IMG/VR virus record: IMGVR_UViG_3300042197_003319
Span: 1 to 64,000 of that record
DNA length: 64,000 nucleotides
DNA from: a virus
Strand: one strand, 5' to 3'
Below, one piece after another: positions 5,800-62,000 of this stretch (within the stretch, counting starts at the first letter, position 1; every line of letters begins with the position of its first letter). Below the pieces are notes generated by a model, which saw nothing but the letters and a program-made list of their open reading frames with translations, was not told the origin of the DNA and did no database searches. Made by a program: the position numbers and the translations under genes.

Positions 5800-6204
5800 C
5801 TAACCTCTTTTGCAACTCCGCAAGACGTCCCAGTTGTCTCTCCACTCGCAGTTAGGGGCAAAGTAGACAGATTGGGTACGGGGGAGTTTTTCGAAAGGGA
5901 CAACAAAAACGGCATTTAGCTTGGTGTGGTAAAACACAAACGCGTCAACCACGCCTTTACCGTATGGCTTTTTTGTGTTGGTCTGGTGAAACCCAGACCC
6001 ACGAAGGGCAAAGAATTTCAGCTTTGAACGCCGGGAGTCTTCGTACCCTGAAGTCGTCTTTACCTGGATACGTTTGAGGGTCCCCCGATAGTCCGTGATC
6101 AAATCGTACCCCTGGTCGTAAATAGGCTGACTTACCAGAAAACCCTGCTCCAAAAGAACAGAGGTCACCTTGCAGACGCCGATCGCCCCAAGAGCCTGAC
6201 TCAT
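5800..6204 (-). CDS. free-standing PD-(D/E)XK endonuclease (group I intron-associated-like family)
   Basis: G..G..V...L..QGF.VS.P..D..YDLI.D....LKRIQVKT pattern. Confidence 0.75.
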   Translation of the reverse strand: MSQALGAIGVCKVTSVLLEQGFLVSQPIYDQGYDLITDYRGTLKRIQVKTTSGYEDSRRSKLKFFALRGSGFHQTNTKKPYGKGVVDAFVFYHTKLNAVFVVPFEKLPRTQSVYFAPNCEWRDNWDVLRSCKRG

Positions 6205-6731
6205 AGCCAGTCCTTCCCAAGAACGTTGACGGCGAGACGGCGCCGACGATAAACCCCATCCCCGTCGCGGCTTCCGCCACCGTTGGTATTGCCTTCAATC
6301 GTCACAAGCCAATCCCCCTCGTTCTTTTCCACAATGCCAACGTGCGCCACCCGGCCCATCGAGTTGAACCAGACCCCGAACACATCGGCTGGTTTGAGCG
6401 GAACTCCCCTTCTCTGCCGGTCCCAACTCGGTTTAGCCACAAAGACGGGAGACCAAGCCGAGCGAGGGTAGGGGTTGAATATCGAGGCGCCGAAGGCCTT
6501 GTCCCCCACCCAGACAATGAATGCCGCGCACCATGGCGCCTTGGTGCCTTCAAGCTTTACGGATGCGAGGATCTCGTCCACCACGGCCCCGTCGTTTCGA
6601 CCCGTGGCCTCCTTGATACCGATGGATCTACGGGCCTGTTCGACGACGAGAAGCCTCTGCGCCTCAACTCCTGGGCCAGCCAGAGCGTGGGAAAGAAACG
6701 CAAGATAAAGCGCAACATAGGCTATTTGCAT
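6201..6731 (-). CDS. CHAP/NlpC-like peptidoglycan hydrolase (endolysin) with N-terminal signal peptide
   Basis: PWCAAF (Cys), AHVGIV (His), TIEGNT. Start reassigned to ATG 6731 (MQIAYVALYLAFLSHALA). Confidence 0.8.
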   Translation of the reverse strand: MQIAYVALYLAFLSHALAGPGVEAQRLLVVEQARRSIGIKEATGRNDGAVVDEILASVKLEGTKAPWCAAFIVWVGDKAFGASIFNPYPRSAWSPVFVAKPSWDRQRRGVPLKPADVFGVWFNSMGRVAHVGIVEKNEGDWLVTIEGNTNGGGSRDGDGVYRRRRLAVNVLGKDWL

Positions 6732-10030: not shown

Positions 10031-10975
10031 TTAATTTATCAAGGCTTCGATAGTAAAGCTTGCTGGCGATGTCCAGGAATTTGGCGGAATGTAATCAGGG
10101 CTGTCTAACGGATTTGTCATTGATGTGTAAATTTCGCTAAAACTACTACCTTGGTTGCTGCACTCGTAACGGTTAAATCTCCAGACATTTGCAGAAGCAA
10201 GGGTTTTCCAGGAAGGATTTGAGACAAAGGTTGTCTTTGGCGGGATAATGAGCTCGCCGTAGCTAGTTTCCGAGCCGCTAGAAGTGTTATAAACATAAGT
10301 ACCGTAGTTTTTCCTATAAGCGTAGCCGCTCAGAATTCTTAACTCCGGGGATTCAATAAAACCGCCGGAATAAACACTGCCCGCAGCCAATTCGCCAGGC
10401 CCAATCTTTTGGTAAGTTCCTCGCAAAATGTTTGACCCGGGAATATTGCCCAGTCCGGTTACTCGTATTTGGTTTGTGCTAGAGACCGGTATTGGTATTG
10501 AGATAGGAGTTCCGCTAGACCAACTGTCCAGTGGGATATAGGTCGGGTCTGTAAAAGCATTTATATCCACAATTTGGTAATATAAATAGCATAACCTCCA
10601 GTCAATCGTAAAATACACCCTATACCAAACGTTAGCCGGAAAAGGTGGGTAGAAGATACCCTGTTGATAGTAAGTCGAATCCCCACCTACATAAGAATTA
10701 GGTTGCCCAATGAAAGAGCCTTCTGAAGCATAGCGATTGTCAAAGGTAGCGCCCGGCCCAAAATTACTGGTTTGGCCATAACCACCCCCAGATTGAAAAT
10801 GGACTAGTACCTCATTGACAAGATCGGGAGTGCAGTCTAAAAGAATTCCCTGATTCTTAGTATACAAAACATTACCGTACAAAATTCGATCTGTGCTTTC
10901 AAAAAACGCAAGGTTGACTGGGTTGTACCTGGCTATCTTTAAACGATTGGACAAGACAAACGGCAAACCTTTCAT
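10031..10975 (-). CDS. hypothetical low-GC accessory virion protein
   Basis: 314 aa, Tyr/Gly/Ser-rich; AT-richer than its neighbours. Confidence 0.6.
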   Translation of the reverse strand: MKGLPFVLSNRLKIARYNPVNLAFFESTDRILYGNVLYTKNQGILLDCTPDLVNEVLVHFQSGGGYGQTSNFGPGATFDNRYASEGSFIGQPNSYVGGDSTYYQQGIFYPPFPANVWYRVYFTIDWRLCYLYYQIVDINAFTDPTYIPLDSWSSGTPISIPIPVSSTNQIRVTGLGNIPGSNILRGTYQKIGPGELAAGSVYSGGFIESPELRILSGYAYRKNYGTYVYNTSSGSETSYGELIIPPKTTFVSNPSWKTLASANVWRFNRYECSNQGSSFSEIYTSMTNPLDSPDYIPPNSWTSPASFTIEALIN

Positions 10976-11015: not shown

Positions 11016-12290
11016 TTAAGCGGTTAGTATAAAATATTTTTTACTTGGGGCAGAGCATACGACATTAAGAGAATCTGTTGGGACAAAGGTAGTCTCAAAC
11101 ACAATTGTACCACCATTTTTTACAACTAACAAATCGTCATAGGTGGCAGTGGCACCAAAGTTTATATACATATCTGTGTCTGAAATGTTCTGGAAAAAAA
11201 GATATCTACGATTCGCGCTAAAAGAGCTTAATGGTGCTGGAGCAGGCTGGCTAGTGTTTGCCACTGCAGAGGTTGTGCCCCTTACCTTCACCACACTTCC
11301 GTTATGAGCCTGCACACGAAGAGGATTAGAATTTGAAGCGGTATTCGCCAGCGAAATTGGGAAGAGGTTGCTGGTCGAAACAGCCGCACCATTGACAAAG
11401 GTATTAGACGTAGCCACTACGGGTATTGGGTAACCAGAAGGAACACCCTGTACGCTAACTACATCTGGGGAAACTGATTGCGGAGTCCCAGTCCTGCCAT
11501 AATCAATAACTGCCCCGGTCGAATCAGTAATTTGAACTTTAGCTTTAAGATTGTTAGAATCCGACTGAGATACTACGACTGCAGAAGCTCGCAATTGGCT
11601 ATCGGTTAAAGGGCCTGAGACAGAAACAGGCGATGACCGTAATTGAGTATTTGTCAGAGGTCCTGTAACTGTCACAGGATTTTGCCTAAGCTCGTAGTCT
11701 GTAAGCGGGCCTGTAACCGTTTGAACGCTTGGCAGATTAACAACAGCTACATTTCCGTAGCTTACCTGAATGCTTTCAGGCATGTTGGAAACGGAAACAA
11801 CTCCGTTTATCGTTTGGTTTTCAGGAAAATTTTGAACCGAGACATTTTGGGAATTCGGGAAGGTGACCTGTATATTCTCTAAGGCTTCAAGACTCGAGGG
11901 CGCCAATGAAACAGAAACCGGGGAATTACGAAGTTGGGTGTCTGTAAGCGGCTGATTCAGACCGGTATTTGCAGTTACAGTTCCGGTTATTTCCTGAATC
12001 GTTGGTAGATTAGAAACAGAGACAGACCCGTCCACCGTAATCGAACCGTTATTGTCGGAAACCGGAACAGGACTATTTACGGATACGCCGTTTGCAACAT
12101 CGCTTCGAAGAGATTCAATTGAACCCTGGACCGAAGCTAACGTTGTCTCTGACGCGAGCGAGGACCCGTCAATCGTAACCGGGCCAGTAATTTCGGCGGC
12201 TCCGGTTTTAGCCTCGATCTTGTTTAAAAGGCTAACAGCTTTTCGTAACGAGGTGTCCGCCCCGTCATTGATGTAGGGCGAGTCGTCCAT
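11016..12290 (-). CDS. repeat-containing accessory virion (fibre/decoration) protein
   Basis: V/S/T/P-rich with 16-aa GPLTDxQLRxxPVxVx repeats; C-terminal ANRRYLFFQN..MYINFG domain. Confidence 0.65.
   Translation of the reverse strand: MDDSPYINDGADTSLRKAVSLLNKIEAKTGAAEITGPVTIDGSSLASETTLASVQGSIESLRSDVANGVSVNSPVPVSDNNGSITVDGSVSVSNLPTIQEITGTVTANTGLNQPLTDTQLRNSPVSVSLAPSSLEALENIQVTFPNSQNVSVQNFPENQTINGVVSVSNMPESIQVSYGNVAVVNLPSVQTVTGPLTDYELRQNPVTVTGPLTNTQLRSSPVSVSGPLTDSQLRASAVVVSQSDSNNLKAKVQITDSTGAVIDYGRTGTPQSVSPDVVSVQGVPSGYPIPVVATSNTFVNGAAVSTSNLFPISLANTASNSNPLRVQAHNGSVVKVRGTTSAVANTSQPAPAPLSSFSANRRYLFFQNISDTDMYINFGATATYDDLLVVKNGGTIVFETTFVPTDSLNVVCSAPSKKYFILTA
11570..11715 (-). repeat. three tandem 48-bp / 16-aa coding repeats, with a fourth copy near 11905-11955
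   Basis: GPLTDYELRQNPVTVT GPLTNTQLRSSPVSVS GPLTDSQLRASAVVVS; QPLTDTQLRNSPVSVS. Confidence 0.8.
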
Positions 12291-33528: not shown

Positions 33529-34125
33529 TCAGTTTACAACGATCTTATTTTTTTGCACTACCCCTCCCCATGAACCTTTGGGGAAAGCGTTAAACGCGAT
33601 TGAGTACCTCGGCTCGTCGTCAAGATTAAGCCTGACCCCGTGCCTGAGGTTTGACGGGAAGACCACCAACCTTCCCCGTTTGGCTGCAAGCTCCGCAGAC
33701 TCCCGGTCCTCCCCGTACAGAAAGAACAGATTCCGTTTCCATAGATTGACGTTGTCCGAAAAGTACGTTTCACCCCCCTTTCCTTCCGTCAGGTAAAATA
33801 CCCCGCTTACCAGGGAGTTGTTGTGCATGTGAAAGTGATGCTCAAAGCCCGTCTCTGTCAGGTTGGCCCAGGAAAGTATAATCTCCAACTTTGGGAACGG
33901 GTACCCAACCCTTTGGTTAACTGTCGCCAAACATTGGTCGAACCATTCGTGGAGTTCCTGGAATTCCGGTTTTGTGTGCAGGTCGGCCGCCTTGGTTATC
34001 AAATTGGCCGCCGTGTTCTCAAATTGCTCTTTTTTAACAGCTGCCAAAGCCGAGCTTGTTAGCTCATCGCTCGCCTGGAACGTAAACAGGCTAAGCCCAA
34101 GGATCTTTTGCTCCTGCATTTTCAA
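33529..34125 (-). CDS. putative 2OG-Fe(II) oxygenase (TIGR02466-like)
   Basis: SWAN, HxH (HMH), SGVFYL, FPSNLRHGV, RYSIAFN. Confidence 0.85.
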   Translation of the reverse strand: MKMQEQKILGLSLFTFQASDELTSSALAAVKKEQFENTAANLITKAADLHTKPEFQELHEWFDQCLATVNQRVGYPFPKLEIILSWANLTETGFEHHFHMHNNSLVSGVFYLTEGKGGETYFSDNVNLWKRNLFFLYGEDRESAELAAKRGRLVVFPSNLRHGVRLNLDDEPRYSIAFNAFPKGSWGGVVQKNKIVVN

Positions 34126-47003: not shown

Positions 47004-50000
47004 TTAATCCACGTTCCTCGGCCCAAGCTCCCGCTTCAGCTGCCTTTTATCCGAAGCCTCCTGCCATAACTCGTATTTGTTTAGCACCAGAAGATCAGCG
47101 CTCTTGTTGGCTCTGCTTGTTAGGCGGGTGATCTCGTTTTGAACATCGCCAGAAGTGCGCTCAGGCAGTTCTTTAAGCCACTCCGGGTCCCTCAACGTTT
47201 CCCTAAGAACCTTCGCCCTTTCCATAACCCAATCATCCCTCTGCTCTTCGTTTAGCAGCACCCCCCTCACCCTTACTTGTCTTTCCGGCAGGGTCACCCA
47301 AGCCCTCTTCTTGGCCAGCTCAATCCAAAGAGGGTCGGGGTTATCCCGATAGCGCATAACAATATCCCCATAGTTGAAGAACGCCTGCTTGGCCCTATCC
47401 CATCCGTCCTTAGGCAGTTCTGATCCGTCGCTCAGCATGGGCTCTCCCAATACGTTGGTCATAGGGTGGTTAAAGTTGCGGAGGAAAGGGATGTTCCCGA
47501 TCCCAGCCGCCATAATGGATGAGTAATTGTCGGTCTTTTCGGGGAAGATTTTCCGGTCAGCTTCCCGCAGCAGGTTCCCAAACAGCATAGACCCACCCGT
47601 CCGCATCAGGAAGGCAACCGCTTTTTTGTCCCAGCTTCCGCTGTCCAGGTTGCCAAGGTCGGCCAGGGTTTTCACACCGCTTAAGAACGGAACGTCAACG
47701 ATGCCAAAGAGCATCGACTTTAATCCGGCCAGTGAGAACTGCATGGCCAGCTCCCCAGCCTTTGCCTGGTTGGGCTTCTCGTACTTTGAATAGTCGCGCA
47801 TGTACCCCAGCGATTTAAACAAGAGGAAGGTCGGCAGCCAGTTCGGGTTCTTGAACCACATATTCCCCACCTTGATGCTTTCCGGTTGCCATTTTCCGCT
47901 GTCGATCAAAGCCTGCCTGAACGCAGGATCCGAAGGACCCTTGCCGGAAAAGTCCAGGAACCTTTCTTTTTCGTCATCGTCTCCGTCAATTGTCCTGGCG
48001 ATAATCGCAGTCAATCCCGCCAGCATTATCCCTAAACCTGCAATCCCCCCGCCTAGTTCCATTGCCCGCATGTCGCTGGGCTTCTGCCTGGTCCCCTCTC
48101 CCCACACCTTGATCGTAGGGTTCATGCTCTTGAGTATTCCTGTCCCCATCCAGGACAGCCATGTCTGGTAAACCGAAGTCACAATCCCGTAAAAAGGCTG
48201 GACCAGTTTCGCGATCAGGTAATCGTTGGACCATCCCTCCAAGGTCTTCGCGAGGAAACCCGTGACTCCCATCGGCTTGTTGGTGTAAGCCAGCACAGAG
48301 CCCAGGAAAAACGCCTCGTCAGTCACAGCCCCGACCATTCTGTCGATGGTCTTCCTTTCAGCTTCGCTCGCCCTGTTCCAGACACGGTTCCAATAGGGGT
48401 TCGCCAATCCACGATTCCTTCTGGCCGACAGGTAAAGCTGTTGCCGGAACTCAAGTGTCCCAGGCTTGAGCCTTTCCACCCGCTCCTCAGACGCTTCCCG
48501 CTCTAGTTTCCGCACGATCTCCGGGCCTTCCAAGCCCTCCGGCAATCTCTCGTTTGTCCCGGCAATCTGTCTTGCGGTCCTGAGCATGCTGCCCAAGTCA
48601 GAAGACAACAGGCCCTGGGCATCAGGAACATCCCGGTCAGGGTAATTTTCAGCGAGCTCCCTCGAAACATCGGAAGCCGCAAGAGCTGCCGCAAGTTCGC
48701 TGTAGAAAGTTGTCGTGGCCAAATCCAGGGAGTTGTAGAGCCTCGAGATCAGAATCCCAAGACCTGTGGGGCTCACCTGGATTGCCGCTGAGTCTCCGTA
48801 TTCGGGTGACCTAATCGTTCCGGCGCCAACCTTCTTTAACCCTACCCGAACAAGCTTAAATGTTTTGTCCCAGGCGCTCTTGGATATCGGGATTTGAGGC
48901 CAGATTCCACGCTTGTTCCACCCAAACCAAAGCTCAGCAAGCTTGGCCACGCCCCTGCCGAACGAAGAGTTTGCGTTGATCCGAACACCACCCTCACCAA
49001 GAAGCTCGGGCAAGGGACGACCGGATACCCTGGTCGATAAGGTTTTTCCTGGAGCAAGGGTTTTACCTGAGCTGTCCCCGGTTGCCAGCAGGTCAATGGC
49101 TTCCACCAGGGCGTTGTTGATCGCTCTTGGGATGGCCTTCATGGCGACCCTGACAGACGACATGTTCTTGTCCCTGGCAACCCTCACCCCAAGCATAGCC
49201 CCGAGGTTCAGCGCGTTGCCGATTGGTGACAGAAGGTTGACCGTGATGGTCTTAACCCCTTGCAAAATATTCGTGTAGAACTGGCCGACAAAAGCCTCGA
49301 GAACCGTGACCCCGGAATCCTTCTTGATGGCGTCCAGGATGTCCATGGTCTTGCGGCCGGCCCTTCTGGAGTCAGGACCGTCAGGATCGTTGGCGATTTC
49401 GTTGGCTAGTTTCTCAATCGTCTTCTTGGTCTGCTCGCTCGGCATCCAGTTCTCGTCGTCGAGCTTTAGCTTCTTGGCCACATATCCGTAGATCACCTGC
49501 TCGGTAAGGTTCCCAGCCAAAGCAGCCTTCACGACGTTATGCAGGTTGTCCCGAATGGCCCTTGTCGCCCGGTTCTCGCTCTTCCCGAACACAAGTTGAA
49601 TGGATCGCTGGATCTCGGTTTGGGCGATCTTTTCCATTTCGTCCGAGATCTTGGACAGAACCCGCCCAAGCACGTCCTCCTTAACCTCGATTCCGCTGGC
49701 CTTAAGCTCGGCCACCAGGTCGGCCAGAACCTCTGCTTTCCTGGCCGTCAAAAGATACCTGCGGTTAAAGACAAACTCCTTGAAGTTGAAGCTTGGGAGG
49801 GTCATGTACGACCTGACGTCCGCCGTGGTGAACGGTTCGTCCATGGCCTGCTGCATGGCCTCGACAATCAATTGGTAAGAGCCTTCGTCCACCGAGTCTT
49901 TGAGGCTGTCGTAGATCATTTGAACCGCAGTCTGCAGGGATTCCCAGTTGTTCATGGCCTCGCGGAACCTGCGGACAGACTGAAGTTTCCTTTGCTCCTG

Positions 50001-53000
50001 GCTCATCTTGCTGCGGGTCAGCTTGAGCTGTCCGTTACCCTGGAGCTGAACCCTTTCGCGAAGGATTCTGCGGATGATCCCCACGGCGGTTTCTTTGGGG
50101 GCCTTGTTTTCCGCGTCTTTTGCGTCCAGGGCCCTTTCAAAATTCTCAAGAAACCCATCCAGGACGTTCTCGATAATCTTTCGGCTGGCTTTGTTAACGT
50201 CTTTGACTGGGCTTCCGGTTCCCGAGACCTGCTCGTCTGCCTCGTCAGACATCATAGTGGTTCCGAAACGGTTCCAGAGGTGATTGTTGATCTCGTTTGT
50301 CGTCGCTTGGGCTGACTCATCAAGCACGTCCTGGGCCTCTTCGATGTTTTCCAGAACTTCCCCTTCGGAAACACCAAGCTCTTTGGCCACTTCTTTGGCG
50401 GAGGCTGTGCCTTTCTGCAAGAGCGCAGCGGTTCCCTCGGCAACCGTGGCCGACATTTGCCGTCTTGTCTCAGCCGAATCCTCGGTCTTCTTGAGCAGTT
50501 CGACCATTTCCTTGGCCGTCTTGATCTGCTGGTCGAGCACGTCGGAAAGCGTGTTTGTGCTCATCCTCTGCCACTCCGAGGAGATGCTGGCAATTCTCTT
50601 GGCCTTTAACAAAAGCTGCGCCCAGATGGCGTTGTTCGCTGTTGATTCGATCAGCCCGCCAAGCTTGGAAACTTCTTCTTTCCCAAACACTTTCTCCAAG
50701 GCGCTGTTGATGGCCTGGTCGCCAGCCATCTTGGCTTTGGCGATGTCGTCCGCAAACAACCCGACCTGGCGGAGCCTTTCGACCTGCTTGGCGTTTGTCG
50801 CAAACCACATCCAGCCAGCCACTCCGATCCTTGAATAAGCCCCAAAAGCCCTAAGCCCTTGGGCAAGGGATGTCCCGAGGTCGGCTTGTTTTCTTGCCAG
50901 AGCAAACTGCATGGCCCGTATTTCGTTTGCCCTTTCCGGGTTTTCCTTTGCTGCTTTTTCCAACTGCTGGATAAGGATTGAGTTAAGGATAACGATGTTG
51001 TCAAAGTGCCTGGTGCTTCCGTCGCGGATGGCCTGAAGCTCTTCGTCGTTAACGCTAAGATCGGGGCTAAGGATTGCCCTGGTTGCCTGCTCTGCCCCAC
51101 CGACACGGTTGATCAGGGCCAACATTTCCTCTGCCCGCAAGGGCTGGGTCCTTACCGAGTACTTAAACTCACCCAGAGCTGTCGCGCTTCTGAGTTCGTT
51201 GCCAAGTCGTTCATCCCTGGCCAGCTGCCCGGCAAACACCTGGCGACGTTCTTTGCCTTCCCGCTTCTTAAAGTATTTCATGCCCCTGGCTTCCCGCTCT
51301 CCCTGTTCCCCACGGTATGGGCTTCCGGTTCCAGCCACATCGTCGTTGCGGATTACAAACTTAATCGTTCCGGCTTTCTCCTGTTTCTCAAGCTCACGGA
51401 CCAAAAGCCCAAATTCAGATCTCTGCCACACACGTCCGTTAAAAGGATATTTAGCGACAATCATTTGAGAGGCTACGTTTCCTCGAGCCCCTTCCCTTGA
51501 AACGTTTAGTGTCGTAAACCCAATAGCTCCTTTGTCTATCAAGTCCCAGGTAAACCTAAATTTCGGTCTGGCTCTCCTGGCTTTGGCCTCACTTCCAGTT
51601 ACCGGAGGTTCCGGATGAACCGTTTCTTTCGTGGAAAGCTTGTCCCGTTTGTTGATCTCAAAGGATGTTTTTGCGTTACGGCCAATTTCCGAGTACTCAA
51701 GCTTTTGGGAATTGGTCTTGTCCACCTTGTAAAGGTCCAGGGAATTAAGCTCGTGGTAGCCAGGTATTTTTGGGACCCCCTCAAAATAGAGCACGGTCCT
51801 GGGCTGGATGACGATCTTCGTCCCTTTTGTGACACCAGTTGCGTCCCCGTAGTCTTCGTGGGAATACATGTTCACATAGCGGTTGTTCTCATCCAAAAGG
51901 CTTTCGGGTGTTAGACTAACTTCTGTCAATACTCCGCCACGATTGGTCGAAATGCTTATGCCCGAGGTGGCAATCACATGGTCCAAGGGGGTCAACTTTA
52001 ACCTGTCGGAATGCTCAAACCGCTCAAACAAGAACCGCTCCAACTCTTCCGCCGACATTCCGTTGTTGTTGTCGATGATGGTGTAGCGGTTGTTCACCTT
52101 GTCTACAGTCACACTGACCTTGGTTTTCGCATTTCCGGCTTTGAACGCCTGCTGAATCAGCTCCGTAAGTCCGTTAACCAGGTCGTAGTCCTTGGCCTGG
52201 CCGATAGCATTCTCCACCAGGGTTTTATTTACCAACAGAGGAACCTTAACCCTGCCCGGAGCATCTTCCCCGTCATAGTAAAGCGATCCGGTTCCGGCAA
52301 CTTCTCCGTTGCGGCTTACAAGTTGAACCCCAGTCGGAGCCCTGTCCTTATACAGCATCTGCGGGTAGGTTACGTGTGAACGCTCCTTGATGATCTTAAG
52401 CGCAAGATCCATCAGGTTATTTGTCCTTGGCGATTCCGGTATCTTAATCACGTCACCTGGTTTCGGCTGGTAATCCGTCGGAAGGTTATTGTGTTTGGCC
52501 ACTTCCTCCCTGGTCAGTCCGTACTTTGTCGCAATCTCAAGCAGAGTCAGTTGTTCCGGAGCCTCGAAGAACGGAGGCACTTCCACGCTCTTGGTAGTTC
52601 CGGGAATCAGCAATTGAGAACCGACAATAACTTTACCCATCGTCAGGTTGTTTGCTTTCTTGAGGTCCTGGACGCTAACACCGTTTTTGGCCGCGATATC
52701 AGCGAGCACTTCATCTGAAGTCCGCTTGCGGCCTTCCGGCACAACATATTCAGTTGCCTCTACCGGGACATCCATTTGGGGGGACTTGCCCGCGAACAGC
52801 ATGTTTTCGGTCACGCTTCTCATGGGGCCGGTTGCGCTGATCTTTTTGCTGCGATTCACAACCGACATGCTCTTTGGCGTGTTCCGTAATAGGGCAAGCT
52901 GCTGGATTTTCTCCAAGCCCTGCTTGTTAAACTCACCCTTGCGATAGGTGACCCAACCAAACATCATCCCCACCTTGACAATGTCCTGGTCGTTTATCGA

Positions 53001-56000
53001 AGCGCCTGCCTCAAACCTTCCCGCGAGGTATGCCTCGGCTTCCCGCTTTACGACATAATCAAAACTGGAATTGGTGGCTCTACCCTGCTCAATGGCTTCC
53101 ATCAAAAGGTCGATGCGCTGTTTCCGCAGCGCTTTCCTGACTTCGATTTGCGACTGCGCGACATTGTCGGGCCTTTCCGTTTTCTCGATGTCCACCTTCT
53201 TGGTTCTGGTGGCGATGTCTTTGCCGTACCACTTGCCTTTGTAGTAAATGTCGCCCTGCTCGCCCAGTTTCTGAATCGCAATCATCACCGCTTCGTCGGC
53301 GTTCCTGGCCCGGATATAGATCTTCTTTGACCTTGAGTTGACAGCACCGATGCTTCCGGTCGAGCGGTTGATCTTTGCCGCAGCGGAAGCCATCGACATC
53401 ACCATGGCCTCGCCTCTCGGCCCACCCCGCTTGTTCGGCTTGCCGGCGATCTCTTTAAGGAGTCTTTTGGCGTTTATGTCGGCGATTTCCGGGTGAAGTT
53501 GGAACTCCCACATGGAGTTGCCCCGTTCGTCAACCATAGGCTCGGACTTAATGATCGGCGTTCCGGCTGGCTTCATCCCAATTATGGTTGCCGGCTTGAG
53601 CGACTGAGTTTCCTTTTCGCTCTTGAACTCCACCCTCCGAATCGCGGAAAGATCCGGCTCAACGGGAAGTGTGACCATCAGGGTGGGGGAATCCGTCCCC
53701 TGGTCGCGGGTGATGGTTACGGCTTTCTTGGTCGTGTAATAAGCCGAAGCCGCGTATTCAGCGTGCAGACTCGGCACATAGGAACCGTCGGTAAATATCG
53801 GGATCTTGAAATTCCCCGAAACGTTTTTGTCGGAGTTATACTTAAGGATCATCCCGACCCCACCGTAAGACACCGGCAACTGCCACTCTCCGCTTTCCGC
53901 CTTGGACCACCCTTTCTCTTTGGTTTCCTGGTAAAGGATTTCCGCAGATATCTTCTTATCCTCGACGTTTGCCAGGCCAAGATAGTTTGCCGGGAATGTC
54001 CACTCGATTGTCTTTTTGTAGACCGGGGCCCCCTGACCAAACTTCGGGACCATGCCGCGACGCTTGAGCTCCGCCACAATCGCCGGTGGCAGATTGTTAA
54101 GTTCCTGTTCTGTTACAAGGACACCTTCCTGGGAGTCATCGACTTTGATTTGGCTTACGTATTCGGTCTTCAGCATTCTGTCGAATACGTCCTGGACCTC
54201 AGCTTTTTCAGCGAGGATTTTCTGCCGTGCAGCCTGTAGTTCTGAACGTTTTTTGAAAGCCAAAGCTGCTCTTGGGTTGTTCTCTTCTCCCATCTGCAAC
54301 TCGGACAATATCTCCTGGTTAATCAAAAGAATTTTTTGATCCTGCTTTCGGATGTCTTCTTCAATATTTTTTAAGTGGACACGATATTCGTTAACCCTCT
54401 TTGGGATGCTTGGGGTTAAGACCGCGGAGCGAATCGACTTTTGGTCGATCAACTTCATGGTCATCTGCAGACGTCGTCTGGCGGCTTTGTCGAGAGGTGC
54501 CGGAGGAAGCTCCTGTTTCGCTTTTTTAGAAACCCATTTTTTAAGACCAGCGTCCCAATCGGCATCCGCACCGGTGATCTCCGGGATTGAAACGTTGGTC
54601 GTCAGCCACTGCTCGTAAGCCGCCACTGCTTTCTCGGCAAGCTCCCTGGCTTCCTTTGTCTTCTCTTGGTCGCCGATGGCGTTTAGAAACCGCAGGATTT
54701 CCTTGGTATGTTTGTTGGTTTCTACAAGTTTTTTGACGGCCTCGTCTTCGTAGGACAATATTCTTGAGTTGGTTTTTGTGACCTCGATTGCCTTTCGGAA
54801 AGGCCCAAACAGCACATTGACAACCGGGTCCTGCAGGGCTTTTGTCTGAACCATCGGCTCCGAAAGCTTTTTGATTTCCTGCATGAAGTCCCGCAATTCC
54901 TTACGGGTTTTCGCAAGCTCGATTGTTTCTTCGAGCCACTGCTCATCCTTGGCAATTGTTTCCAGAACTTTCTTGAACCGGAAATAGTTTTCCATGCCGG
55001 CAGCTTCCAGGGCGGCAAGCAACCTGTTGTATTCCCACCGCGACTTGAATCCCCTCTGTTCCAGCACTTCGTCCGTGATCTCCGGCGAATCGAATACTTC
55101 CAGGTTTGCCAGGTTGGGCCCGTACTTCTCTTGCTGGTCGGTGGTTATTTGAAAACCTTGAGCGCCCATGTACAGGCCGTGTTGAGTGGACAAATAGGCG
55201 TATTTTCCTGCGTAATCCTCCGTTAGGATTTCTTCGGCCGCGGAATCAACATCCATGCCGTCGTAAAACTCTTCGTCGTCAAGCCCGGTATTAGGGTTAT
55301 TGTAGTTCGAAGAAGCGTAATCGGTTTCTTCTTCGTAAACTTCCTCGCCAAAATAGTACACGGGTTTCTGAATAGATTGGCGATCGCGCTCAAGCGTTTT
55401 CCGAACCACCTCCCATTTTATTTCGGCAATTTGTCTACGTATCTCCTTCATCTCCAACTCGATCTGTTCGCGTGTCCTTGGCGTTCCTGTTCCCGATACC
55501 CATTCCTTGGACTCAAGGTCTTGATTTGGTTTTTGCGCTTCCTTAACCCTAAAGGTCACCGCTTCCATTGCTTTTTGGATGGGTGACACGGAAAACATAT
55601 CTTCCGCATTCCCCTGACGCGAGTTGTCGGAAAGAGCCGCTGCCAGCTCGTCCATCATCACATTAAACAAGGTGGCTGATTTCGCTGTATACTTTGTCTT
55701 TCCGTTTTCCAATTTTGTGGTCGGCCCGATTTTCTCGGACATGAAATCGACCAGGGCCCTGAACTCTGGGTTTGCATCGATCTCTGGGAACTTGTTGGTG
55801 GCTGTGCCCTTTTCGTCAAGCAGGTCCATGACGTTGGAACTTGAAGCCAGCTCTTTGATTGCCGCGTACGGGCTCATGTTTCTGGCTTTTTGGGAGAGCA
55901 TTTGATTCATCAACCTGCTGAAGAAAGCCTTGTACTGGGCGCTTTCTTTTTCCCCAAGAACTTCCGACGATGCGACACACTGGGCCATGGACAAATAGAG

Positions 56001-59000
56001 GTTTTTGGCGTTGCCCTGGTCCATCACTTCCCTGACCATTTCTGTTGCCGGGGTTGTGCTTTTGGGGGCATTCAGATGTCGGTCCATCGGCTGCAAAAAC
56101 TCACGTAGGATCATGTACTGCAGGTATTCGACCGGCTGAGAACCTGCCGCGCTGCTCAGCAAGGCGGCTCTAGAATCCCTGTCGATGACGTTTTCTTCGA
56201 CGAGTTGTTTGATAAATGTCTGAGCCCCCTCCCTAGTCAGGTTGTGGAGATCGACGGCAAGAGACCTTAGCTTTTTGCGCTTGGTCTCTGATTTGGCCAC
56301 AGCGTCATAATCCTGGTCAGCTTTTTGCAAATGGGTCAGTTCCGACCCACCTTCAGCGTTCATCACCTTAACCAGGTAATCCAGTCTTTCGGAACCCTCC
56401 TGGGTTGAGGTGTCAACCTGCTCCGTCATTACCCGATAAAGGAAATACCCTCCAGTTTCGAGGTCGGCTGGTATTTCTCCCCCCATTCTGGCCGTCATGT
56501 CTTTCGCAAGATCCAGCATTGCAGACACGTTTTCGGGAGACTTGGCAAACTGATACCCGAGAACTTGCTCCCGTGCATTGCCTCCGACCACCATCCATTC
56601 GCCTACCGCCTTATCAAAAATAAGGGTGGGAAGCCCTTGGTTGGGCGAACCGGCCCCCTCGTTTACGATCTGCTGCGGGTCAAAACCTGGGCCTTGGATT
56701 TTTAGAATCTTTTCCTTTTCTGCCGGGTCATAAGAATAATTCCTGGTATTGCGACCGGTGTATCTTGAGTTTGCCCCAAAGAATTTTTCTGAACCCATGT
56801 GGGAGGCCTGAACCTTTGACCTTTTGACCCAGGCGTAAACAAAAGGATGCCTTTGACCAGAAGCGTCTCGCACCTTTTGCTCTGGCCCAAAATCTACGAT
56901 ATCTCCTGGGTTTCTCTTTTTAAGCGTGGTGGCATGCGTAATTGTTCTTGTGACGCTGGACAAGTCCACCGGCTCTGCGGTTACAGCTGAGCCACCTTCC
57001 CTGAGCGTAACCTTCGGTCCCTCCTCCGTGGAAACAAGTTTGAGCAGGCTGGTTATTGACTCGTTGTTTTTCGGGGGTGCGTTAGGACCATATTTTTCAA
57101 GGTGGAAAAGGATGTTGTCCGTTGCGTCCAGGACAGACCCAAGGAATGGGCTGTCTTTTACGGTGATGCCCAGACGGCCAAGGATATCAAACACCGCCTG
57201 CCGCAATGCCTTGAACCACATCGCCAGGTATCCGTCTTTGGGAACCCCTTTGAGGAGCTGTCTCAGGCTTTCTTCGTCTGCCTCGGATGGGCGGATAAAG
57301 TCCTCCGTCGTGTAACCAAGTCTGGCTTTTTGCAGGACGAATCTGATGTATTCAATGGTTGCCGATTTGTCATCAAGCTCCCTGCCGTACCTTTTTCTTA
57401 GGAGCTCCAATGCTTCCGGGGATATCTCTTCAAAAGCCTTTTGGGTCAGGTAGTTCATTGTCCTGGAGTAAGCTTCCTGGGCGGTTAGTTCTCCAGACCT
57501 AATCTGCCTGTCATACAACTGAACAGCCACGGTTCTGACCACCGCGTAAGTTGCGTTGTGCGCCATCTCTTCGCTTGCTGTGCTCAGAAGATATCCTCTT
57601 CCCGCTTCGCCAACCCTGCCCCGCATGTTGAGGGAAATCCTGTCCCTGTTGTTGAGGAGGACTTCCGGCTTGATGTATACCGTGTTGAAGTCCGGTGACG
57701 AAATACTTACCCAAGCCGCCATGTCTCCCCTGTCCCCAAAGATAATTTTTACGTTCTTGAACTTCAGGTCCGAAAGGGCTTTTGCGAATTCGTCGACAAC
57801 ATCCTGCTGGTAAGGTGACAAGCTGGAAAATCTTTCGTCAACAAGCTGACCGTTTCTAAGAACAGTTGCCTGCCTTCGGACTTCGCCCTGCAGGTCTTTT
57901 GCGTAGACTTTTCCGTCGCCAGTTTCCTTCGGTATCTGGGGGCGACCATCAACATAAGTCGACCCTTGAAAAGGAAGGGTGGGTTGGTTGCTGTCGCCTT
58001 GTTGCAGAACACCCTGGGTGGCGGCAAGAACACCCTGCTTGCTTTCCCGTCTGCGGATTCTCTCAAGGTCCGTCCAAATGTCCGAGGCAACCAGTTCTTT
58101 GATAACCGGCTCCGACATGGAAGAAAGCCGGTAGCCTGCGCGCTTTAGGATCTGATCGTGCTTGTCGGCAGCCTCGTTCGGAGTCGCGATATAAACAACT
58201 CTTGGTGCTGTTCCCGTCTGGTCGTCCAACGATAGCCCGGCTCCACCCTTCATCGGGGTAACAAGAGCCACACGTTTTAGGCCTACCTGGAAGTCATTGA
58301 TGTCGGAGGTCATTTGAGCTCCGCCTTCCCCGTAAATGACAGCCGGCTGGAGTCCTTCTTTGCGGAACATGTCGTTCAGCATCTCCAGCATGGACGGGGT
58401 TTTGCCGAAGTTTATCTCCGGGAAGGAGATCTCGTTGACGAATTCCCCGAAGATAACAACCTGCTTGCCTTGCCGCAGATCCTGCATGGCCATTTCGAAA
58501 ATGTACGGAGCCTTGTTAACTTCGGCCCAGGCTTCCGTCTTGAACTTCAACACGCCCTCAAGCTCGAGCGTTTTACGCTGTTGCTCGACCGTTGGGATCA
58601 CCGAAGGGTCGCCGGTCAGCTCGGAAATTTGTCTGCGGTAATAACCCTCGATCTGTTCGATCTGAGCCTTGATTTGCGGACCGGCGTTAAGCTCAACCCT
58701 CGATGTCTGAACGTTGATCCCTTCCGGCACTCTCCGGATGTAGGCCCCAACGGTTGCAGCCGACTCAACAAGGTTGGCGATGGTCTCCTCTTTGTTCTTG
58801 GAGATTTCCAACATCGAGCGAACGGTTGTCTCTGATTTGCCGAGAATTCCCGGCAGGAAATAGAGAGCACCCGAAAGGCGGTCGGCGGGAGTTGCCGTAA
58901 GGAAAATCTTAAATGCCTTGGTCTGCCTCGCCATCTGGTTACGGATGGCGGTGGTGTTCTTGAGGTTCTGGGCTTCGTCGAACAGGATTACGTCCGCAGA

Positions 59001-62000
59001 CTCAATGTCCTTAATGGAGTTCTTGGAATAAGCATCGTACGTGTAAAAGAACACGCGGTTCTTCGGGATGTTGGCCGAGGCCAACTGGCTTTTTAGGCCG
59101 CCCGTGGAAGCGTTGATTAGCTCGTTGCTTTCCGTGATAACGATGACTTTCCCGTACGGCTCGTTGCGCGCAGCAGCTTTCATGTCTGCGATCACACGGG
59201 CAGCCGCCTGCCCCGACCTGGTCTTCCCCAGGCCTGCGTCGTCCGCCAACAGTGCCGCCTCCCGCCCAACCTTGTAGGCGTTCACAATCAGGTTGGCCGC
59301 TTCCCTTTGGTGCGGAAGCATCAGGTAACGGTTCGGGACCACGTTTGGGACAGCCGGGTTTGCGTCCGAGATAACCTTCAATGCCGGCTCTTTGATGCCA
59401 ACCCCCGGCTGCTTGGACGCAAGGATTGCCTGCATGAGCTGGATCGCTTTGTTTGCCGCCCCCTGTCTTGGGGACATATCAAGCTGGTCCTGGATTTCGG
59501 CGACCTCGACGTTGGTCAGGAAGCCCGACTCGTACAGCTCTTCCAGCAAATCCCTGGCCAGAGCCTGCGATTCCCGGTCAAAGGCGGTGAGCTGTGGCTT
59601 ACCTTTCGTTTCCGAAAGAACCCTGAATGTCTTTTGCGGACCCTGGATTATCTCGGGCAGCTGCCCGGTTTTTTGGTAAGCTTCAAGGTCTTTGTTGTAT
59701 TTTTCTTTTACAAAAGCCACCATCCCGTCGATCATTTTTGGAAGGCTCTTGGCCAGCTCTCCGGTGCTCGTCTTGTACCCCATCGAGTTAAGAACACCTG
59801 CTATCTCTGATAGCTTTGTGGTGTTCTTCGCAAACTCTTTCGGGTCTTGGTTTTTCCTTGAGGCTTCGTTAAGCGCAGCCCCGAGCAGGTACTTCTGGCC
59901 AGGGTCCTCGACCGAGGCGAAGTATGCGTTTTTGGCGTTCTTCCGAAGATCACTGCGGACATCTTCGTCACTGGCCTGAACCGTGGGGGAGGCAATCACA
60001 TCCTCAAGCGTCTCGTCTCCTGAGTCGTCTCCCAGGCTTTTCTGGAGACTTACGGCGGACTCTAACCCTATTTTCCCGCCAAGCCTCCGGCCAAGCTTCC
60101 TGGAGTAGTCTTCCACCACGGAACGGAAGATCCTGTTTTTCGAAATTCCAGGTACGTCCTGGGTCTGGAAGAGTTCGTTGGCTTCTTTGTCCGTTACACC
60201 GGAGGTCTTGTTTTTACGGACATCGTACTTGCGGCGCAGCTGTCTCCAGTAGCGCATCCGAGCCGCGTTGGCCAAACGGGTTTCGTCAACGGTGAGGTTG
60301 GGGTTATCGAGCTTGAACTTTGAGGCCTTTTCCCGGAATGCCCTTTCGGCCTCGGCAAGGTTTTGGGCCTCGTCGGGGGATTCCGGTAGTTTCTCAAGAG
60401 CAGCCAGATAGTCCGTGGACTCTTCGCTAAAAGAAATTTCGTTGCTGACCCTAGACCCCGGTTGCGAGACCTTGGGTAAACGTCTTACCGGCTCAGGCCG
60501 GTTTTGCTGCAGCCTTCCGTACCTTGCGTTCAGATCGGAAAGCGCCGTGGAGACGTTTACCGGCAGATCCACTTCTGCCTCCTCCGGAGGAGGCGTTCCT
60601 TTGGCGAGCTCCTTGGCTCTGTCGACCATCGGCCCTTTCGGCTTTTGCCACAATACCGCAATGGTGTTTTTGACCTCTCGGACAAAAGCGGCTTGGAGCT
60701 CTTCGTCGTCCGGCCATACCAGGTCGGCCTGCTTTAGGATCGGGATGATCTTGTCCGCAAATTCGGCGTAGGATAAGTCGGACGGAAATAGTTTGTCCCC
60801 GTCCTTGATTCGTCCGGCCTCAAGAAATTCCGGGCGCAGCTTGTTGAGATAGTATTCGGCGGAGTAATCCACACTCCTCTGCAGCTTGGGGTCGAGCTTG
60901 GGCGTGCCGGTACCGCTGAAACCCTTAAAGAGAAATTGTTGGGTTAGTTTGTTTTCGGGGACAAGGGTTGTGTAAGGTTTCTCATCCCCTGCCCGCTTGA
61001 AGTCCATCTCAAGTTGCGGGTCGACCGGAACCGTAGCCTGTGTGTCAGGGTCAACTTGTTTGCCGACGGGGAGTTCCTGGTCCACCGCCAAAGGTTTGTC
61101 GACAGTCGCCTGGGTGTCTGGCGTTCTAACTTTTCCGGCAGGGAGTTCCTGGTCCACCGCCAATGGCTGGTCGACAGTCGCCTTGGTGTCGACTTTGGCC
61201 GGACGTCCTGGCCTTGAGAAGTTAAGCTCGTCCGGAAGTCTCCCAGTCCCAGCGATCTCTTCCCCTTCTACTTGAGGAGTGACTGGCGCTTGACCTTGTT
61301 CAGCAGCCCCTGGCTGCACGTTTTCCCCAGGAGCGACTTCTTCTGGGGTTGTGGTTGCGGCTTCTTCTTTTTGTGTCGTTGATGGTTGCCCACTGGTTGT
61401 TCCCTCCGTTGGCATCAAAGAGCCAAGATCAAACGGCTCGTCTGTTTTTAAAATGTCCTCATCCGGCCTCTCGTATTCCGTCATCGGTTTGAGGGATTCG
61501 GCCACTTCCTGCTCAAGCCCGACTTCGGCCTGGGCCTGTGAGGTCAAAGGAGCGTTGGAAATCTCAGGTATATTCCCCGATCCTCTCCTCCTCAGCCTAA
61601 GCCCCAAGGCGTTGACGACTGCGCTGACCAAAACTCCGGAAGTTCCCCCAACCTTTGCCGACTGCAGGAGGTCTTCGGTTAACTCTTGGTTGGGGTTGTA
61701 TCCAATCTTCTCAAAGAAGTTCGAGGCCCATGTCTGGAAAGCTTCCTGGGAAAATTCTTCTGCCCCTTCCTTCGCCACCTCTTTCATGTAACCAATAAAA
61801 CCCCTTGAGAACTGACCTCCGGTGGAATCGTCCAGCTTGTCCACCCATTTGGCCATGGGGATCGCTTCGCTGGTTCCGAAAAGGGCGTTTAGCGCAGAGT
61901 ACTTCAGGGCCTGCTCGTCGCTTGCGCCCTCTGAGAGCGCTTTGGAAACAGACTGTCCCCCGGAAATTGTCGACCCGGTTATCATCGTTGTTTGGGTCCC

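Follow-up and report, generated by a model that had tools for sequence, protein, structure and literature searches.

Why should one very large phage protein carry the same short peptide at six separate places? The question is raised by a 64,000-nucleotide stretch of viral DNA (positions 1 to 64,000 of IMG/VR virus record IMGVR_UViG_3300042197_003319, the whole of which is called the window below), whose minus strand contains an open reading frame (ORF) of 5241 amino acids (aa) encoding a protein of 577 kDa, hereafter the giant. An earlier analysis made from the letters alone (the sequence-only reading) had noticed that a motif, [VIF][AS]GTG[STR][PL], recurs between recognisable modules of this protein, and had proposed that the copies are functional signals, either cleavage sites or points of docking or hinging. 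The core of that idea stands. The copies are, with strong support, functional peptide-level signals placed in the linkers that separate modules: their positions are conserved, their residues change in concert from lineage to lineage, and they lie in predicted coil or in low-complexity stretches rich in insertions and deletions (indels). Judged from its homologues, the ORF is a real gene, since full-length homologues of 5034-5480 aa exist, with identities from 98% down to 32%.

Six copies of a motif within one protein

A pattern scan of the giant returned exactly six copies of the motif, at the residues listed by the sequence-only reading (Table 1). An acidic residue stands just upstream of five of them, also as described before, the exception being site 2 (KGFS). 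A seventh GTG, at aa 4862 (WMGTGIL), is found in another context, within a conserved hydrophobic block. From the composition of the protein 1.47 GTG would be expected (7 observed), as against 0.23 for [AS]GTG (6 observed) and 0.0008 for the full pattern (6 observed), and none of 2000 residue shuffles reached six for either of the latter two. As the pattern was defined after being seen, these within-protein statistics are post hoc; GTG is only the fourth most enriched among all exact 3-mers of the giant (uncorrected p = 8e-4), and a de novo search for enriched exact k-mers did not pick out the motif, whatever the lineage. The statistics of a single protein are therefore not decisive, and it is the comparative evidence that carries the case.

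A weight matrix derived from the sites, and thus trained on the very positions that it scores, gave values of 14.6-27.1 at exactly six positions of the giant, the next best position being at 6.8 and the maximum among shuffled sequences at 11.0. Scanned over every ORF of three related genomes, it found sites only in the giants, and none in capsid, portal or scaffold-like proteins; the further matches were two in spurious frames and two weak ones below threshold.

The sequence-only reading had argued from the use of different synonymous codons that conservation is at the level of the peptide. The conclusion holds, because the codons of the relatives at the same sites are unrelated, and an explanation of the motif at the DNA level was rejected on that ground. 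The codon diversity within this gene had, however, been overstated: four sites read GGAAC[CA]GGA, three of them identical in DNA (GGAACCGGA) and one being GGAACAGGA. GGA provides 8 of the 12 Gly codons of the motif cores against 24% of those used gene-wide (binomial p = 0.002), a bias not shared by the relatives.

The sites change in concert between lineages

An alignment was made of the giant, seven homologues of full length and two fragments. Metagenomes are the only source of this small clade, which comprises ten homologous sequences and three contigs with genomic context. All six site positions are kept in homologues of about 45-55% identity, the sole exception being site 1, which is deleted in P0004. 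The central tripeptide (the core) reads GTG at every covered site in this phage, in its 97-98% identical relatives and in one 79% relative. In P0006 it reads GAG five times and GTG once. From site 1 to site 6 the cores are AAG, GAG, SAG, GSG, GAG or GSG, and GVG in P0004 and P0005, and AAS or GAS, GAS, ASS, GSS, GAS and GAS in P0007, P0008, P0010 and contig G001. Read down the columns, site 1 is AAG, GAG or GAS/AAS in the homologues, and site 2, in the same column, is AAG, GAG or GAS; at site 6 the automatic alignment was shifted by 1-2 residues, the homologues then reading GVG, GAG or GAS.

A simple picture emerges when the three core positions are considered separately. The first varies freely between G, A and S, even between relatives that are 84-94% identical. 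The second is Thr at every site only in the lineage of this phage, where it replaces the A, S or V of the others. The third is Ser at every available site in P0007, P0008, P0010 and L002, a change from G to S in the P0007/8 lineage, and Gly in all other lineages, bar the register-ambiguous site 6 of P0004/5. Within the GTG lineage, the flanks vary around an unchanging core. When lineage labels were permuted within sites, the observed uniformity was reached in 279 of 200,000 permutations for position 2, in 175 of 200,000 for position 3 and in 6 of 200,000 for both combined. Because the site residues change in concert by lineage, the pattern points to one shared reader whose preference has changed, the six sites following, and not to independent drift in six unrelated linkers.

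Across lineages, the consensus starts upstream with an acidic run from -7 to -3, followed by F, Y, V, L or I at -2 and V, S, A or T at -1; the core (G/A/S, A/T/S/V, G/S) comes next, then S, E, T or V, then P, V or L, often with K-P behind. An insertion of 120 aa in P0003, a close relative, brings an extra GTG copy, and P0002 has one 24-aa repeat fewer; both cases fit a 'module plus site' design.

The predicted position of the sites between modules

Two AlphaFold models were used, one of aa 3300-4300 (model 1) and one of aa 1590-2440 (model 2), with a mean predicted local distance difference test score (pLDDT) of 53.8 and 64.1, respectively. The sites that they cover, 3 to 6, are all predicted in coil or in segments of pLDDT below 50 between better-defined blocks, so that the location in linkers suggested by the sequence-only reading is upheld for four of four modelled sites. 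Site 3 would be in a 21-residue coil of pLDDT below 50 (residues 811-830 of model 2). In model 1, site 4 falls within the low-pLDDT (below 50) segment 134-194, site 5 within segment 498-550, five residues past the last strand of the GHKL module, and site 6 in an 18-residue coil (857-874) of segment 840-884. Sites 1 and 2 occupy a low-complexity, indel-rich stretch rich in P, E, T and Q, and sites 1 to 3 are in the most indel-rich and least conserved stretches of the giant.

The border marked by site 6 has a counterpart elsewhere. Stand-alone, Met-initiated relatives of the C-terminal module, of about 750-1100 aa, exist in other genomes, and several complete ones (about 890-960 aa) have their start near the counterpart of site 6. 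A search for shorter proteins that would represent split forms over aa 2300-4300 returned two fragments only, both from short contigs, and a word-based search found no stand-alone relative of aa 1590-1930.

A separate observation concerns the residues that follow site 1. The block DELNF(S/N)(R/K)PGRPA (aa 499-510, window 61200-61235, minus strand) stands out from its neighbourhood by much stronger conservation in every lineage that has retained the site; it may act as a peptide in its own right, or be the N-terminus that a cut would expose.

A protease as the proposed reader

On the favoured reading, all six motifs are recognised by a single reader, specific for their sequence and evolving along with them. 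The simplest assumption is that this reader is a protease, given a core of the smallest residues, a hydrophobic residue just upstream and a position in exposed linkers at the borders of modules; in its extended form the consensus also resembles a protease site. The assumption agrees with the predicted processing of polyvalent phage proteins (PMC5512222) and with the multi-site cutting proven in SPN3US (PMC10052503). Cleavage is a plausible interpretation, and we give a probability of about 0.5 to the reading in which all six sites are recognised by one co-evolving endoprotease that cuts the giant in its inter-domain linkers. Cuts at all six would divide the giant into about seven products, namely an N-terminal part that is acidic and rich in Gly and Ala (about 54 kDa), a repeat peptide (12 kDa), a helicase-containing part (199 kDa), a LysM-bearing part (117 kDa), the GHKL ATPase (35 kDa), a helical part (41 kDa) and the membrane-inserting C-terminal module (118 kDa), the like of which is a separate protein in many other genomes. 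The cut would be made within or next to the small-residue tripeptide; if the bond before its third residue were the one cut, the products would have Gly or Ser N-termini.

The enzyme would be located within the giant itself. Among the possible proteases an embedded, unrecognised enzyme is ranked first, ahead of a host enzyme and then of the subtilase discussed below, since the sites are confined to the giant and a separate, conserved protease is not apparent. A fuller version of the favoured reading makes the giant a true polyprotein of a tailed phage, ejected with its own non-canonical, non-cysteine protease, possibly the EEMxH domain, and cut into seven effectors and conduit parts, the specificity having switched between lineages (Ala to Thr at one subsite, Gly to Ser at the one after it) with all six sites following; in this complete form we consider it rather unlikely.

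Several results weigh against cleavage, among them that the search for a protease did not identify one. No peptidase was found in the giant by Pfam, PHROGs, NCBIfam or PDB profile searches, run on the whole protein and on segments. The internal EEMAH segment, which the sequence-only reading had proposed as a zincin protease, is not supported in that role: it reads SEEMxHN in all eight homologues, Glu always replacing the first zinc-binding His of HExxH, and has no support from hidden Markov models (HMMs). MPTase-PolyVal (PF18818) had no match in the whole genome at E <= 10, nor was one found in Pfam scans of the segment at E <= 5, and the ddrB-ParB model had none in the genome. The prohead protease families PF04586 (S78), PF03420 (S77) and PF00574 (ClpP) were likewise without a match in the genome at E <= 10, a search that a very divergent enzyme could escape. 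Both structural models are of low confidence, with 29-45% of their residues below a pLDDT of 50, and the chance that four of four sites fall in such segments is about 0.03. The motif is also confined to a narrow clade: the site matrix showed no enrichment in the full-length but only 32%-identical P0011 or in 147 more distant relatives of the C-terminal domain. Lastly, packaging and ejection without any cut is possible for large internal proteins of podoviruses, as with the virion RNA polymerase of N4 (reviewed in PMC5512222), and the virion of phiRIO-1 gives no clear sign of processing (PMC4819975).

The order of secondary structures in model 2, in which the EEMxH domain was modelled within aa 1590-2440 and not alone, would be compatible with a zincin: strands, the EEMxH helix, then a helix with an invariant TAQEAY. 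Foldseek returned weak rows only for this model (E > 0.04), among them M1 aminopeptidases at E 0.16-0.7 and one ParB with a probability of 0.47, and VIA-align was dominated by helical hairpins. That the EEMxH domain is the protease is possible but unsupported.

Other candidates were tried and rejected. An embedded cysteine protease is excluded by the near absence of Cys, with 1 in the 5241 residues of the giant, 0 in the 5178 of P0006 and 2-4 in the other homologues, so that the analogy drawn by the sequence-only reading with Gly-motif cleavage in large DNA viruses, which is the work of cysteine proteases, is inapplicable to an embedded enzyme. No cysteine endoprotease was found by Pfam among the scanned ORFs, the only papain-like match being the CHAP-domain protein of Table 1; this protein, 75-81% identical in the relatives, starts with a signal-peptide-like segment, for which reason it was rejected as the protease, and it is probably an exported lysin. 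Cis-autoproteolysis by an N-O or N-S acyl shift was discarded, the GAG sites being devoid of a Ser, Thr or Cys nucleophile and no core position bearing one of these residues across all lineages. Cutting of the signal-peptidase type was set aside, as the sequence upstream of the sites is acidic and not a hydrophobic helix.

Readings without a cut, or with another enzyme

The giant might also remain whole and be bound at six points by a common partner (portal or core, scaffold, packaging chaperone or host factor) that holds, orders or threads it. A binding partner co-evolving with its docking motif would account equally for the concerted change by lineage, the linker location and the restriction to one protein, and the span of the sites, long and weakly conserved from about -7 to +7 with its acidic run, is typical of binding motifs; this reading also agrees with the negative outcome of all protease searches and with the ejection of N4-type giants uncut (PMC5512222). 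Docking is a serious rival; what makes us hold it as the less probable reading is the nature of the most constrained part, a smallest-residue tripeptide with a hydrophobic flank and Pro, Val or Leu after it, which is more like a scissile site than an epitope, together with the coincidence of sites and module borders, including that of a module standing alone in other genomes; moreover, no candidate partner shows matching variation. If the linkers were instead passive flexible hinges that tolerate small residues, the motif would be a by-product without any reader. The sites do lie in disordered linkers, the first core position varies freely, and GTG by itself is not significant in unbiased k-mer statistics. 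However, Thr at all six sites of one lineage and Ser at every available site of another are left unexplained, and so are the conserved hydrophobic residue at -2, the small one at -1, Pro, Val or Leu at +4 and an invariant GTG-lineage core between varying flanks; we regard passive hinges as very improbable.

Cleavage could also be the work of an enzyme other than one embedded in the giant. A host protease with a preference for small residues (HtrA/DegP-like, or another periplasmic or cytoplasmic endoprotease) might cut the unfolded chain at entry, differences between lineages then tracking their hosts. In favour are the failure to find a conserved phage protease, the exposure that the sites would have in an unfolded, ejected chain, and a small-residue core that would suit an elastase-like specificity. 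Housekeeping specificities are, however, broad and conserved, which makes a strict uniformity of Thr or Ser per lineage hard to explain, and no prophage relative was found among 185,579 species genomes scanned; a host enzyme thus appears distinctly unlikely. The cuts might also be made by the phage's own S8 subtilase, either while the virion is assembled or within it; no other gene of the genome clearly encodes a protease. VIVDG, HGTH and GTSMA are present in both orthologues, the catalytic triad is intact, and the protein has an I9-like propeptide and no signal peptide; the nearest NCBIfam models, far below their cut-offs, are site-specific processing subtilases (mycosin, PatA-type). The gene is kept at a syntenic position, with 52-54% identity, in contig G002, which belongs to the G/A/S-x-G lineage, but it sits in a variable fibre module and is absent from contig G001 (41.8 kb, 61% complete), of the Ser type, which covers the operon from terminase to giant and whose giant has all six sites. 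The subtilase position is taken there by an RCC1-like protein of 738 aa and others. A copy might still lie in the missing part of G001, and the comparison of subtilase presence with motif type covers three genomes. That this enzyme makes the cuts seems very unlikely.

Modules of the giant and its genomic context

Of the modules that the sequence-only reading had placed between the sites, the repeats, the helicase and the GHKL module were recovered, whereas the labels 'zincin' and 'ParB' found no HMM support. The features are collected in Table 1. The helicase region is the most conserved block in the N-terminal half of the giant. No tandem repeat was detected at the DNA level by TRF for the 24-aa units. 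The GHKL module, which falls just short of its Pfam cut-off, matched the N-domains of Hsp90, GRP94, MORC3 and MutL in Foldseek (E 2.5e-4 to 1e-3, probability 1.0), and a Bergerat ATP-binding fold between sites 4 and 5 is confirmed at the level of the predicted structure. The core of the C-terminal module (aa about 4800-5110, window 47700-48330) is common to 438 large proteins of 700-4600 aa (E <= 0.001); no Pfam family was found in the eight of these that were scanned, and the core looks like an undescribed, widespread family of large proteins. The language-model neighbours are the large polyvalent-protein domains LPD23, LPD1 and LPD5, which have no assigned function and serve as leads only.

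Table 1. Coordinates of the motif sites and of the other features discussed (window positions unless stated otherwise)
Feature	Position	Strand	Remarks
Giant ORF, 5241 aa	47004..62729	-	Terminal gene of the structural operon; its start and the stop of the preceding 361-aa gene overlap
Site 1, IAGTGRL, first G aa 494	61236..61256	-	First-Gly codon ends at 61250; conserved block DELNFxRPGRPA directly after
Site 2, FSGTGTP, first G aa 606	60900..60920	-	First-Gly codon ends at 60914
Site 3, VSGTGTP, first G aa 2413	55479..55499	-	First-Gly codon ends at 55493
Site 4, VAGTGSL, first G aa 3479	52281..52301	-	First-Gly codon ends at 52295; between LysM pair and GHKL module
Site 5, VAGTGSP, first G aa 3800	51318..51338	-	First-Gly codon ends at 51332; directly past the last GHKL strand
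Site 6, VSGTGSP, first G aa 4170	50208..50228	-	First-Gly codon ends at 50222; precedes the C-terminal module
Two 24-aa repeats, aa 516-563	61041..61184	-	18/24 identical; in the 112 aa that separate sites 1 and 2
SNF2/ResIII-type helicase region, aa 1137 to ~1560	58050..59321	-	Before site 3; Pfam ResIII 2e-7, SNF2-rel_dom 8e-6
Invariant SEEMxHN, aa 1719-1725	57555..57575	-	Invariant in 8 homologues; in a long helix of AlphaFold model 2
Two LysM peptidoglycan-binding domains, aa ~3330-3440	52410..52742	-	Pfam LysM 9e-12, two stretches; PDB profile match to LytE LysM repeats
GHKL-fold ATPase module, aa 3481-3799	51333..52289	-	Bracketed by sites 4 and 5; Pfam HATPase_c 25.0 bits vs cut-off 26.4
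C-terminal module, aa 4173-5241	47007..50213	-	Predicted membrane helices aa 4892-4910 and 4998-5016 (hydropathy scan)
CHAP-domain protein	6201..6731	-	Pfam CHAP 9e-5; real start MQIAYVALYLAFLSHALA; conserved Cys and His
S8 subtilase, 566 aa	Genome 70499-72199 = L001:8499-10199, outside the window	-	Pfam Peptidase_S8 6.4e-29; flanked by two collagen-repeat fibre genes

The window belongs to a phage genome that is complete at 75,237 bp. Bases 1-127 of the contig recur at its end (genome 75111-75237); this assembly overlap shows that the genome, assembled as a circle, is circular or terminally redundant. A long minus-strand operon runs in the order terminase, portal, scaffold-like protein, head-fibre-like proteins, likely capsid, small head and tail proteins, tail-collar fibres, two collagen-repeat fibre proteins flanking the subtilase, four conserved proteins without assigned function and, at the end, the giant. 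The head module consists of the portal, a 95-aa protein, the scaffold-like protein (432 aa), the head-fibre-like proteins and a 426-aa protein at the capsid position. Genes for integrase, helicase, exonuclease, family-A DNA polymerase and rIIA/rIIB are on the plus strand. The giant would be packaged and ejected with the DNA; this is deduced from gene order and domain content, namely its place as last gene of the structural operon, its LysM domains and a C-terminal module that bears membrane helices and is common to many large proteins. The giant locus is syntenic with that of two IMG/VR phage contigs, which were the only related contigs found in the IMG/VR and JGI metagenome scans, and tblastn with both halves of the giant gave no match among GenBank phages.

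A few side observations were made on the neighbouring genes. Those between the scaffold-like and likely capsid genes (window 11016-12290 and 10031-10975, minus strand) differ between relatives: they encode proteins of 424 and 314 aa here, a single protein of 1025 aa in G001 and proteins of 169 and 482 aa in G002. All share an N-terminus of 30 residues that is about 80% identical (MDDSPYINDGADTSLRKxVSLLNKIEAKT), which looks like a conserved anchor bearing exchangeable head-fibre or decoration domains. The 1343-aa collagen protein (L001:4465-8496, minus strand, genome 66465-70496) has about 10 stretches of triple-helix repeats (Pfam 3.6e-65) and is probably a long tail or head fibre. A protein of the PD-(D/E)XK endonuclease family (window 5800-6204, minus strand, Pfam 1.3e-17) is encoded within the structural operon, adjoining the CHAP lysin, and is kept in both related contigs. 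Finally, a 2OG-Fe(II) oxygenase gene (window 33529-34125, minus strand, Pfam 8e-18) stands between the replication genes and a putative small terminase gene.

Significance and comparison with known systems

Motif-directed maturation of phage internal proteins is known already, as is the predicted processing of polyvalent proteins. What is new here is above all that the site residues switch in concert between lineages; the motif itself, its presence in only one modular giant and the lack of a protease that can be recognised are new as well. For the predicted cutting of giant, injected, multi-domain phage proteins no cleavage signal has been defined so far; the giant offers a concrete and testable one, with six mapped sites, natural specificity-swap variants in sister lineages and products with defined borders. 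If the giant is cut, tailed phages would share the polyprotein strategy with RNA viruses and large DNA viruses, a new sequence-specific protease with matched sets of substrates would be at hand, and it would be clear how a single gene lets a podovirus-like phage deliver a helicase, a GHKL ATPase and parts of a membrane conduit. If the giant stays uncut, the sites are still a rare case of a linear motif co-evolving within a virion protein.

Small-residue sites are a known feature of viral polyproteins, for instance (M/I/L)XGX-G in adenovirus, A-G-A/G for alphavirus nsP2 and A-G-X in poxvirus. Such sites recur along the precursor and suit the specificity of the protease that the virus itself encodes. 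As in the giant, a hydrophobic residue a few positions upstream is followed by Gly and small residues at the scissile bond; the enzymes, however, are cysteine proteases, whereas the giant has its single Cys and P0006 none.

Among phages, the closest parallel is SPN3US, whose ejection proteins have been established to be cut at several sites with a common motif (PMC10052503). In its gp245 system (motif AXE-; also phiKZ and T4 relatives), a short consensus is present several times in virion proteins that are internal or ejected, and one phage protease cuts them at multiple sites, with at least three cuts in the gp53 propeptide (PMC10052503). There, however, the prohead protease is recognisable, the motif ends in Glu and is shared by further head proteins, the capsid and portal among them, and most cuts take off an N-terminal propeptide. 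The giant has a core of three small residues, is the one carrier protein in a genome that matches no prohead protease model, and has sites that separate whole modules.

In the polyvalent phage proteins (Iyer et al. 2017, PMC5512222), processing by an embedded peptidase has been predicted without any defined site. The giant resembles them as one very large polypeptide of a late operon that combines several unrelated domains (a ResIII/SNF2-type helicase, GHKL, two peptidoglycan-binding LysM domains and LPD-like regions). The enzyme proposed for polyvalent proteins is a zincin MPTase with HExxH, unlike the EEMxH that is the only HExxH-like segment here.

In its architecture the giant can also be likened to internal virion protein D of the T7 type and to the relatives of that protein that bear cargo (N4 gp50, H66 gp60; Hardies et al. 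2016, PMC4819975). This group differs from the reading favoured here in that N4 gp50 is, according to reports, ejected in one piece and that recurring linker motifs have not been described for it. In both cases, a large protein comes at the end of a podovirus-like structural operon, its C-terminal module exists alone elsewhere and its N-terminal domains would act in the cytoplasm, just as podoviral homologues of internal virion protein D carry extra domains destined for that compartment (PMC4819975).

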